DNA of 64,000 nucleotides from a phage. How positions within the stretch are numbered: position 1 is the first letter of the stretch; every line of letters starts with the position of its first letter. The DNA is taken from NCBI GenBank assembly GCA_014687725.1, contig GCA_014687725.1_4094.1; one strand, given 5' to 3'. Shown here in pieces: positions 15,591-16,328 of this stretch. A program made the translations under genes and the position numbers. The notes beneath the pieces are model-generated. The model saw only the letters and a list, made by a program, of their open reading frames with translations, was not told the DNA's origin and searched no databases.

Positions 15591-16328
15591 TTAGACTGAA
15601 TTGTTAGGATAATATCTCCCACGTCCCCATATTATTCGCACAGCACCACCACCAGCAGCCGTATAAGAAAAATTATCCCATATACTACCACCACCACCAT
15701 ACATCTTACCAGCACCACCACTACCAGCACCACCATTATATGAACCATCGTATCTACCGCCAATACCATTAGCACCTTGAACAATGATACCAGTACCACC
15801 ACCCGTACCAATGAACGAGGTATTATAGAATGCACCACCACCACCGCCGCCGCCAGCACCATTTTCACCAGTGATTGCATCTCCGTTACCACCTTTACCA
15901 GTGTAGCCACCAGCACCACCACCAATGACTGCACCACCACTTACACCAGCGTTGCCCCCATTACCACCACCATCATTAATAGCGTTAGCAGCTTTCCCAC
16001 CTAGTCCACCAACCCTATATTCACCAGTGAAGCTAACACATAGTTTTTCAGTTCCACGATATAAACCGTTTTCAACTGCTGTAGTAGTGTTGGGATGTGT
16101 AAGAGAAACACTTAAGTACTCACCACTAGTAACCGGAATATTATTACGCCACGATAAGCCGCCACCAGCACCACGTTGACCACCCGGCGAAATAACACAT
16201 ACTGATATTTCGGTAACGCCAGCAGGAACTGTAAATTGTGTTGTTCCTATTGTCGTGATTAATTGTTCACCATCTGGCTTATATTCAATTTTATTCCCGT
16301 ACTTTACCATTCTTCCAAAAGGTAACAT
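15591..16328 (-). CDS. glycine-rich protein with the MLPFGRM N-terminal module (7/13)
   Basis: Start set at conserved MLPFGRMVKYGN; C-terminal part is Gly-rich (GGAGGGGGG runs), not RCC1-like. Confidence 0.7.
   Translation of the reverse strand: MLPFGRMVKYGNKIEYKPDGEQLITTIGTTQFTVPAGVTEISVCVISPGGQRGAGGGLSWRNNIPVTSGEYLSVSLTHPNTTTAVENGLYRGTEKLCVSFTGEYRVGGLGGKAANAINDGGGNGGNAGVSGGAVIGGGAGGYTGKGGNGDAITGENGAGGGGGGGAFYNTSFIGTGGGTGIIVQGANGIGGRYDGSYNGGAGSGGAGKMYGGGGSIWDNFSYTAAGGGAVRIIWGRGRYYPNNSV

Follow-up and report, generated by a model that had tools for sequence, protein, structure and literature searches.

A shared 12-residue N-terminus as a candidate virion-docking tag for unrelated binding modules in 121Q-type jumbo coliphages

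Why should a glycine-rich phage protein begin with the same residues as the ten RCC1-like proteins encoded around it? The question is raised by a minus-strand gene at 15591-16328 in a 64,000-nucleotide stretch of phage DNA (GenBank assembly GCA_014687725.1, contig GCA_014687725.1_4094.1), referred to here as the window. The gene encodes a protein of 245 amino acids plus stop, and its minus-strand neighbors are labeled 'regulator of chromosome condensation / putative DNA condensation protein' in records of the 121Q group. A first-pass annotation, made from the sequence alone, had read the shared N-terminus as a portable targeting module. Our analysis favors, with a probability of roughly 60%, the explanation that this peptide, with the consensus MLPFxR-hydrophobic-xxYGN and a variant MLPFPIISNT, is a virion-incorporation or docking tag for exchangeable binding modules.

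The N-terminus of the 15591-16328 protein, MLPFGRMVKYGN, is encoded by 36 nt at 16293-16328 (minus strand) that are shared by the surrounding genes, and the paralogs with starts at 14305 and 21231 have the same 12 residues. The N-terminus MLPF[GAVT]RM[VLIM][KN]YGN is common to 11 intact genes, and a twelfth, split gene (9420) begins with the degenerate MLPFGRIITSS. These 12 genes make up a minus-strand cassette at 8268-22485 (starts at 22453, 21231, 20050, 18831, 17590, 16328, 15518, 14305, 13121, 11852, 10662 and 9420) that is syntenic with genes 234-248 of phage 121Q and with CBB_548-554 of Pectobacterium phage CBB. Within the 64 kb, a six-frame motif scan found this N-terminus confined to the cassette and always on the minus strand. 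The first-pass annotation had recognized the shared N-terminus correctly but had taken it to be 13 residues long; it comprises 12, as residue 13 varies (I/K/T) among the tagged window genes. Its description of the glycine-rich gene as 'gene 7' holds only when counting starts from the low-coordinate end and the split gene is counted once. The tag DNA is 91% identical among the window paralogs, while the rest of these proteins is ~30% identical, a value near the noise floor of forced global alignment, given that aligning the RCC1 paralogs with the unrelated glycine-rich protein yields an equal score. When 20 phage RCC1 homologs were aligned, no more than 13 columns were invariant, and six of these (M1, P3, F4, R6, Y10 and N12) fall within the tag. 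The tag is present on RCC1 homologs from phages and missing from bacterial RCC1 proteins.

The list of open reading frames (ORFs) extends the frame of the glycine-rich gene to an ATG at 16346 (MNKGGS...), which lies within a conserved leader, TATAATGAATAAAGGAGG (sequence around this ATG: ...TATAATGAATAAAGGAGGAAGTATG). We place the start at the ATG at 16328, because the Shine-Dalgarno sequence AAGGAGG (16333-16339, minus strand, 4 nt 5' of that ATG) is spaced for it and the ATG at 16346 is part of the leader; an upstream ATG is absent from paralogs 13121 and 10662. The product is 100% identical to 121Q gp243, recorded as a 'hypothetical protein', and to its SP27 counterpart. It matches phrog_4474 at 2e-69, and full-length orthologs are present in 18 Escherichia phages. 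Over 15000-17000, the window is 91-96% identical to its best-matching Escherichia jumbo phages (vB_EcoM_E9.1, UB, phAPEC6, SP27 and 121Q), which belong to the 121Q/PBECO4/phAPEC6 group, genus Asteriusvirus. Comparison with the G17 ortholog gave a ratio of nonsynonymous to synonymous rates (dN/dS) of ~0.42, from 11 synonymous and 14 non-synonymous differences and with the frameshifted CMSTMSU ortholog (an UNVERIFIED record) left out; this value points to moderate purifying selection. This ORF is a genuine gene for a structural accessory protein in a 121Q-type jumbo coliphage.

To place the tag in a wider context, we gathered 45 tagged proteins, whose sources were six phage genomes or contigs. 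When the 2.9 million contigs of IMG/VR were scanned for exact matches to a degenerate pattern, the tag turned up in six contigs (348-378 kb), one of them the 357-kb contig described next, and in two unplaced fragments of 20-23 kb; apart from these fragments and a metagenomic contig, all occurrences found were in RaK2-like jumbo phages. The cargos behind the tag are of at least four kinds: RCC1 propellers, Kelch propellers, LamG lectin-like domains and glycine-rich domains. Nine tandem genes of a 357-kb jumbo phage contig (IMG/VR) begin MLPFPIIS... or MLPFPIMNKYGN and alternate between RCC1-like and Gly_rich_2 cargos, and three adjacent genes of the metagenomic contig begin MFPLPII (LamG_3), MLPFPIIS and MLPFPIMI (glycine-rich). 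The CBB homolog of the glycine-rich protein, CBB_144, begins MLPFSPLIVYGNKIAP, while CBB_548-554 (a minus-strand cassette like its syntenic counterpart in the window), CBB_536/537 and CBB_247 all begin MLPFx[RI]-hydrophobic-xxY[GA]N, followed by LamG_3, Kelch or cargos with no annotated domain. The portability suggested earlier is thus borne out, with RCC1 and glycine-rich cargos behind one tag both in the window and in the 357-kb phage, and Kelch and LamG_3 cargos in CBB. Elsewhere, members of the glycine-rich family mostly begin MLELL, MIELL or MFEMM (e.g., PVP-SE1 gp19), and only the closest relatives begin MLPF or MIPF. Since the family has a different N-terminus in other phages, tag and cargo have separate histories.

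Codon usage indicates the level at which the tag is conserved outside the window. Tag codons vary in CBB (CCA/CCT/CCG, TTT/TTC, TAT/TAC, AAT/AAC) and the upstream DNA differs; likewise, tag codons vary synonymously in the 357-kb phage, where the DNA upstream of the tagged genes is unrelated. Given this synonymous variation next to unrelated upstream DNA, the tag is conserved at the peptide level in both phages, which speaks for selection on the peptide.

The most direct support comes from virion proteomics. The CBB paper reported 55 proteins, from a genome of 554 ORFs, detected in purified virions by electrospray ionization tandem mass spectrometry (ESI-MS/MS). That list includes nine of the 11 CBB proteins with the tag (144, 247, 536, 537, 548, 549, 551, 552 and 553; Fisher exact p=2.4e-8). 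The same paper named six structural proteins without a gene in phage GAP32 (144, 247, 536, 537, 551 and 552), and all six bear the tag. CBB_144, the glycine-rich ortholog, is a virion protein verified by mass spectrometry (MS) with 5 unique peptides and 34% coverage, and its virion peptides include IAPYQILYEMK (residues 14-24, after K13) and one from the glycine-rich domain. Peptides from the tag itself also appear in the CBB supplementary table: LFEYANVIIPPNYK (CBB_536 residues 7-20, after R6) and LLQYGNK (CBB_553 residues 7-13). Two further phages fit this pattern. GAP32_001, an RCC1-like protein that begins MLPFSRIIQYGN, is the sole MS-verified GAP32 structural protein missing from CBB, and the 62 MS-verified virion proteins of phAPEC6 (96% identical to the window over 15000-17000) include six RCC1 paralogs (gp003, 005, 006, 007, 009 and 010). 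Overall, a virion-targeting role of the tag is strongly suggested. The CBB data show that the glycine-rich ortholog is produced and becomes part of the virion, and that the tag survives maturation. The first-pass annotation had named two ways in which its proposal could be wrong, non-expression of the glycine-rich ORF and cleavage of a shared leader; both are contradicted in CBB, the former by the MS verification of CBB_144 and the latter by virion peptides covering tag residues 7-13 and 7-20.

We then examined the cargo that the tag precedes in this gene. Glycine accounts for 28.6% of the whole 245-residue protein and for 38% of residues 100-245, and the longest glycine run, in keeping with the long runs described earlier, is G7, inside GENGAGGGGGGGAF. 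Searches of the protein returned no RCC1 or other Pfam (E<=0.1) or NCBIfam match, as the first-pass annotation had anticipated in setting it apart from the RCC1 proteins; four neighboring paralogs matched RCC1, RCC1_2 or WD40_RLD in these databases. PF21722 (Gly_rich_2) is carried by many of its phmmer homologs and matches close tagged relatives weakly (E 7e-4 to 3e-3), the 15591-16328 protein itself lying below the Pfam detection limit. A search of 5.8 billion proteins yielded 197 relatives, mostly 230-300 residues long and from large phage contigs. In a sequence search of the Protein Data Bank (PDB), the only match was a galectin, which we judged spurious. The family alignment (34 sequences) starts aligning at about residue 20, and its motifs WRNNIPVxPGE, INDGGGNGG, GGGAGGY and G.VRIIWG are all present in the window protein.

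Domain and structure prediction, the check that had been proposed earlier, produced a TNF-like sandwich with a glycine lattice and a disordered tag. The AlphaFold2 (AF2) model, built with the family alignment, has a mean predicted local distance difference test score (pLDDT) of 92.9 and a predicted template modeling score (pTM) of 0.89. Residues 4-11 fall below pLDDT 50 and residues 11-20 average 65; after this linker, the model forms a beta-sandwich with a long glycine-rich insertion. AF2 and fold comparison agree that the fold is a beta-sandwich and not a propeller. By alignment and pLDDT, a variable linker joins tag and folded domain (residues 13-19, KIEYKPD; 16272-16292, minus strand, as are the following). 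It leads into the predicted N-terminal strands of the sandwich (residues 20-100; 16029-16271) and the glycine-rich lattice (residues 101-214; 15687-16028), with the motifs INDGGGNGGN, GGGAGGY and GxGGGGGGG. The C-terminal strands that close the sandwich in the model (residues 215-245, including GAVRIIWG; 15594-15686) comprise residues 215-217, 221-223 and 229-234, and W234, G235 and P241 are invariant in the family alignment. The lattice is presumed from this model to be the distal binding surface. An AF2 model of the RCC1 paralog next door (pLDDT 90.7) likewise places residues 1-12 below 50 and starts its propeller at about residue 22. In both models, the tag is predicted to be a flexible extension that is part of neither fold.

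The closest fold relatives are the tail fiber gp24 of cyanophage Pam3 (score 12.7), the 'tail wing brush' gp33 (9.3) and tail spike gp29 (8.3) of mycobacteriophage Bxb1, and the glycine-rich domain of the ALK receptor (about 8). The solved phage relatives are all external tail-fiber or tail-tip parts, and the fold is common across predicted viral structures, in 'glycine-rich domain-containing', tail-fiber, baseplate and minor-tail proteins. Pam3 gp24 consists of a TNF-like domain and a glycine-rich domain, the latter proposed to recognize the receptor, and the Pam3 fiber docks to the baseplate through a separate N-terminal alpha-helical bundle (PMC9608196). Within this fold family, trimeric assembly and receptor binding by the distal tip are known for Pam3 gp24 only. 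The window protein resembles the TNF-like / polyglycine receptor-binding heads (PF21722, Gly_rich_2) of Pam3 gp24, Bxb1 gp33/gp29 and S16 gp38, but where Pam3 gp24 docks by a helical domain, the window protein has the 12-residue tag alone. Judged from its model, it would be the head of a fiber-tip adhesin in which the helical docking domain is replaced by the tag. The same glycine-rich domain also occurs as one module of 650-1480-residue fiber-like proteins in other large phages (loci L009, 9989-14389; L011, 6326-10774; L015; and L016), in L009 at the extreme N-terminus.

These data can be combined into a mechanism. A disordered 12-residue peptide and a linker of about seven residues would precede a compact binding domain, and as the particle assembles, the peptide would dock at a single site, common to all tagged proteins, on one of the particle's structural proteins. 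Any module behind the peptide, RCC1 or glycine-rich here and Kelch or LamG in relatives, would be attached in this way, and the virion would end up with a varied and exchangeable collection of small binding modules, probably displayed on its exterior. Recombination at a repeated unit of about 110 nt, described below, would permute the genes and swap tags between cargos. We infer that the tag itself causes incorporation, that the location is external and that the cargos function in binding. An external location is favored because the cargo folds are a fiber-tip head, lectin-like LamG domains, and Kelch and RCC1 propellers.

Several observations weigh against the docking-tag explanation. The count of 11 tagged CBB proteins is a lower bound, obtained by scanning parts of the genome loosely, and two of them, CBB_550 and CBB_554, were not detected in virions. 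MS coverage of CBB tagged proteins begins at residue 7 or 14, with the first six residues not observed. In phAPEC6, the RCC1 paralogs were identified by low peptide counts (1-4), and the glycine-rich protein is missing from the virion list; there it is annotated as a 100-residue fragment (gp004), which may explain its absence. Finally, the tag is synonymously invariant in the window, so DNA-level homogenization alone could explain its conservation in this genome.

The hair-like appendages of phAPEC6, CBB and 121Q are an attractive candidate docking place. Two tag subtypes, MLPFxR-hydrophobic-xxYGN and MLPFPIISNT, coexist in single genomes together with intermediates such as MLPFPIMNKYGN (loci L025/L017, L026 and L022), which could mean that there are two docking sites or that the tag is in transition. 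A more ambitious version of the explanation, which we put forward tentatively and rate below even odds, is a plug-and-play display. In this version, the 12-residue label, in its two subtypes, would dock at least four folds at one or two dedicated virion sites, possibly the hairs, and the genes annotated 'DNA condensation (RCC1)' would encode surface adhesins. If this is true, each phage carries a combinatorial adhesin repertoire that can be reshuffled by recombination at the label.

A second N-terminal motif, M[LI]E[LM][LM]..., is found on most glycine-rich-domain proteins of other large phages (rV5/phiTE-like phages; PVP-SE1 gp19, MFEMML). It is common to neighboring genes whose C-terminal parts are unrelated; these begin MNEMMIVS/MLELMVCT/MIELLAIS at 8128-10744 of locus L003, just upstream of the terminase, portal and capsid genes, and MLELLLV/MLEMLLAG/MLEMLIGG at 9962-12069 of locus L012. 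This motif may be an independent docking tag.

Within the cassette, the tag-coding DNA belongs to a longer repeat. Nine genes share a common 5' unit that consists of a GC-rich hairpin (GCCAGTAC...GTACTGGC) and T-run, followed by TTAAATATAGTATAATGAATAA, AAGGAGG, the ATG and the 36 tag nucleotides. Upstream of the glycine-rich gene, the terminator-like hairpin GCCAGTAC-AAA-GTACTGGC with its T-run lies at 16374-16392 and ends the preceding gene (17590), and a putative promoter/leader motif, TTAAATATAGTATAATGAATAA, which includes a TATAAT -10-like hexamer, lies at 16339-16360; a further terminator-like hairpin at 15563-15585 ends the glycine-rich gene itself (all minus strand). The 22-nt motif TTAAATATAGTATAATGAATAA occurs in nine copies, all in the cassette, compared with 0.01 expected. 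Terminator-like sites are enriched about threefold (19 found vs 5.8 expected from shuffled sequence), most genes are flanked by hairpins, and terminators are independently annotated at the corresponding places in the G17 record. From its sequence, each tagged gene appears to be a self-contained unit of terminator, putative promoter, ribosome-binding site (RBS), tag, cargo and hairpin. Genes 13121 and 10662 lack the upstream unit and keep the 36 tag nucleotides. A sigma-70 promoter scan was uninformative in this AT-rich DNA (88 sites vs 75 expected), and a search for a translational operator found no significant or consistent RNA fold in the conserved 5' initiation region (z -1.6 to +1.8). Non-preferred tag codons are fixed in the window (CCT in 11/11 genes, AAG in 10/10, TAC in 10/11, and GGG or GGA, never the preferred GGT), and within this genome the tag is thus a DNA repeat as well. 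A similar arrangement is known from T4-like phages, in which PeSL stem-loop terminator/promoter cassettes mediate modular shuffling (PMC2839356, PMC4122927). As in PeSL, repeated stem-loop and promoter-like units stand between variable-region genes and coincide with indels and gene swaps; unlike PeSL, the repeat continues through the RBS and 36 coding nucleotides, so recombination would also deliver a peptide tag.

Comparison of close relatives is consistent with such shuffling. When gene order and content were compared among the window, 121Q, E9.1 and vB_Ec-M-J, orthologs with 85-100% identity stood at different positions. The counterpart of window gene 20050 comes next after the glycine-rich gene in 121Q. 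The vB_Ec-M-J stretch lacks a glycine-rich gene, and its orthologs of 15518 and 17590 are direct neighbors with their order reversed. Each compared phage has paralogs absent from the others. Tags also differ between cargos that are 97-99% identical, as in window gene 22453 (MLPFVRMIKYGN) and its 97.6% identical ortholog (MLPFARMVKYGN). These comparisons indicate that close relatives differ by permutation, gain and loss of entire tagged genes and that tags are swapped between cargos, in agreement with the earlier proposal that the cassette evolves by domain shuffling. The repeated 5' unit of about 110 nt, being nearly identical DNA, is the likely recombination substrate in Asteriusvirus. Tagged genes also occur singly in CBB: CBB_144 (locus L020, 6001-6765) is inserted between nrdD and its activase, and CBB_247 (locus L035, 1566-2300) between a recombination endonuclease gene and endonuclease VII. 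Both are absent from GAP32 according to the CBB paper. Such single insertions in conserved operons suggest a moron-like mobility of tagged genes.

How do other explanations of the shared N-terminus compare? It could be a capsid-targeting sequence, with the tagged proteins packed inside the head, ejected, and acting on host proteins or DNA. The internal-protein loci of T4 offer a model: in IPI-III and Alt, about 10 shared N-terminal residues direct unrelated cargos into the particle from a variable locus with conserved 5' ends, and this sequence is cleaved by the prohead protease after Glu, leaving the cargos internal. Phage P1 has uncleaved N-terminal packaging signals, and its DarB protein is packed and ejected. 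Virion association carries no information on location, phAPEC6 has an inner body that, as its authors speculated, RCC1 proteins might form, organizing DNA there, RCC1/BLIP-II propellers (InterPro domain) are protein-binding scaffolds, and hypervariable paralog arrays are typical of anti-defense loci. The cassette resembles the T4 internal proteins in its variable locus and in a short N-terminus common to unrelated cargos, but differs in that the tag has no conserved cleavage motif, its residues persist in mature CBB virions, and the cargo folds point outside. A T4-type L/I-x-E cleavage motif, sought directly after the tag in the tagged proteins, was absent; the sequence after residue 12 differs and has no fixed Glu, and so no conserved protease site follows the tag. 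Moreover, every phage relative of the glycine-rich fold with a solved structure is an external part, and LamG, Kelch and TNF-like modules are typically surface binders. We consider internal packing unlikely. Still less probable is that the tag is a by-product of a repeated regulatory or recombination unit, homogenized by gene conversion or kept for translation initiation. The 91% identical tag DNA with its fixed non-preferred codons, the continuity of the tag with the nine-copy 22-nt motif and the hairpins, the scrambled gene order between close relatives, and the precedent of PeSL elements, which work likewise in T4-like phages (PMC2839356, PMC4122927), would all agree with this idea. It fails for genes 13121 and 10662, which keep the 36 nt without the upstream unit, and for the CBB and 357-kb phage tags, which vary synonymously next to unrelated upstream DNA; six of 13 invariant RCC1-family residues lie in the tag, the initiation region has no significant RNA structure, and tagged proteins are strongly enriched in CBB virions.

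An alternative that likewise accepts a role for the peptide in the particle is a strand-donating or oligomerization arm through which tagged subunits bind each other, for example to build the hairs. The alternating hydrophobic residues (L2/F4, V8/Y10) could form a beta-strand, hairs are present on phAPEC6, CBB and 121Q, and the authors of the CBB study expected the hairs to be encoded by structural genes absent from GAP32, a description that matches the six CBB-specific structural proteins, all tagged. However, four or more unrelated folds cannot share a single conserved acceptor groove, the 25-40 kDa monomers were modeled as closed, complete folds, and GAP32, for which hairs are not reported, has tagged proteins too. 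We therefore regard an arm of this kind as improbable. The remaining possibility, that the N-terminus is a cleaved leader (a signal peptide or pro-peptide) or that the glycine-rich ORF is not expressed, is very improbable and is largely refuted already for CBB. No support for it was found, although the N-terminal six residues were not seen by MS. The peptides that start at residue 7 after R6 are ordinary tryptic products, and the tag has no hydrophobic signal-peptide core; expression is documented by the 5 unique CBB_144 peptides (34% coverage), and the ORF is full-length in 18 phages with a dN/dS of ~0.42.

The docking-tag explanation applies a known principle, the short terminal address peptide; what is unusual here is its brevity, the number of genes per genome that use it, the diversity of cargo folds, and its fusion to a recombination-prone repeat. 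Encapsulin cargo-loading peptides, which are short, usually C-terminal, and address enzymes into an HK97-fold shell, are similar as short terminal labels for diverse cargos and different in their usual C-terminal position and in their enzyme cargos, which lie inside the shell. A precedent for the proposed mechanism is found in KP32-type Klebsiella podophages, in which an N-terminal peptide of the secondary receptor-binding protein is required for virion incorporation (Latka et al.; PMC13352976) and suffices for incorporation when fused to a foreign enzyme (PMC13352976). In both systems, a short N-terminal peptide precedes otherwise unrelated C-terminal modules. The KP32 peptide, however, is 29 residues long (gp38 starts MLDNFNQPKGSTIG...) and serves one tailspike, which docks on the T4gp10-like branching domain of the primary receptor-binding protein, whereas one 12-residue tag serves about 12 genes per genome here and its cargos are small non-enzymatic binding folds. 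Comparison of the KP32gp38 peptide (MLDNFNQPKGSTIGVLKDGRT...) with MLPFGRMVKYGN revealed no meaningful similarity. The relation to KP32 is one of analogy, not of membership.

In the literature searched, no paper quoted the tag peptides; a comparative review of jumbo phages does not mention RCC1, and the phiTE structure paper does not mention the glycine-rich proteins. The CBB and phAPEC6 papers treat the tagged genes as paralogs or as RCC1-like 'DNA condensation' proteins. Our analysis suggests that these genes encode virion-borne binding modules, which gives a testable role to a dozen genes per genome in every 121Q/PBECO4/phAPEC6-type phage that are now annotated as DNA condensation or 'hypothetical' proteins. 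One sequence feature unites the six CBB-specific structural proteins, GAP32_001 and the RCC1 proteins of phAPEC6 virions. The tag could serve as bait for finding the docking site, possibly the hairs, and if it is sufficient for incorporation, it would allow foreign proteins to be displayed on jumbo phages by means of a very short handle. The locus also illustrates that a peptide tag can merge with a regulatory repeat to form one module for recombination.

Public records mis-annotate the glycine-rich gene, which affects proteomic look-ups: besides the 100-residue fragment recorded in phAPEC6 (gp004), the CMSTMSU record has the gene split and frameshifted with a 'PE-PGRS'-type note. A 206-residue variant, P0002, from a 26.7-kb Logan contig is 80% identical to the glycine-rich protein and lacks precisely the tag (MNKGG-NKIEYKP...) along with some of the glycine lattice; it represents either a naturally occurring allele without the tag or an artefact of assembly.

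Two other cassette genes show irregularities. The split last gene (8268-9432) consists of a 78-residue ORF (9196-9432, with the start MLPFGRIITSS at 9420) and a 298-residue RCC1-like ORF (8268-9164). 121Q (genes 234/235) and E9.1 also annotate it as two coding sequences; decay of the copy, a frameshift or a programmed event could each account for the split. Paralog 11852 (11043-11852, minus strand) encodes 269 residues, compared with 392 in its 82%-identical vB_Ec-M-J relative, and the ~350 nt on its 3' side (10700-11040) appear to be a non-coding remnant.

The cassette is bordered by arrays of small genes on both sides. At 4803-7583 (plus strand), a tandem array of eight small predicted membrane-protein paralogs (104-141 residues) adjoins it, with genes that abut or overlap by one base, apart from one pair that overlaps by 62 nt. 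The same neighborhood is found in CBB, where the membrane-protein paralogs CBB_543-547 are followed by the minus-strand tagged cassette 548-554. On the other side, from 22556 to 24000 and beyond (plus strand), lies a long tandem array of very small paralogous ORFs (59-75 residues), about 20 of which are annotated in the E9.1 and 121Q records.

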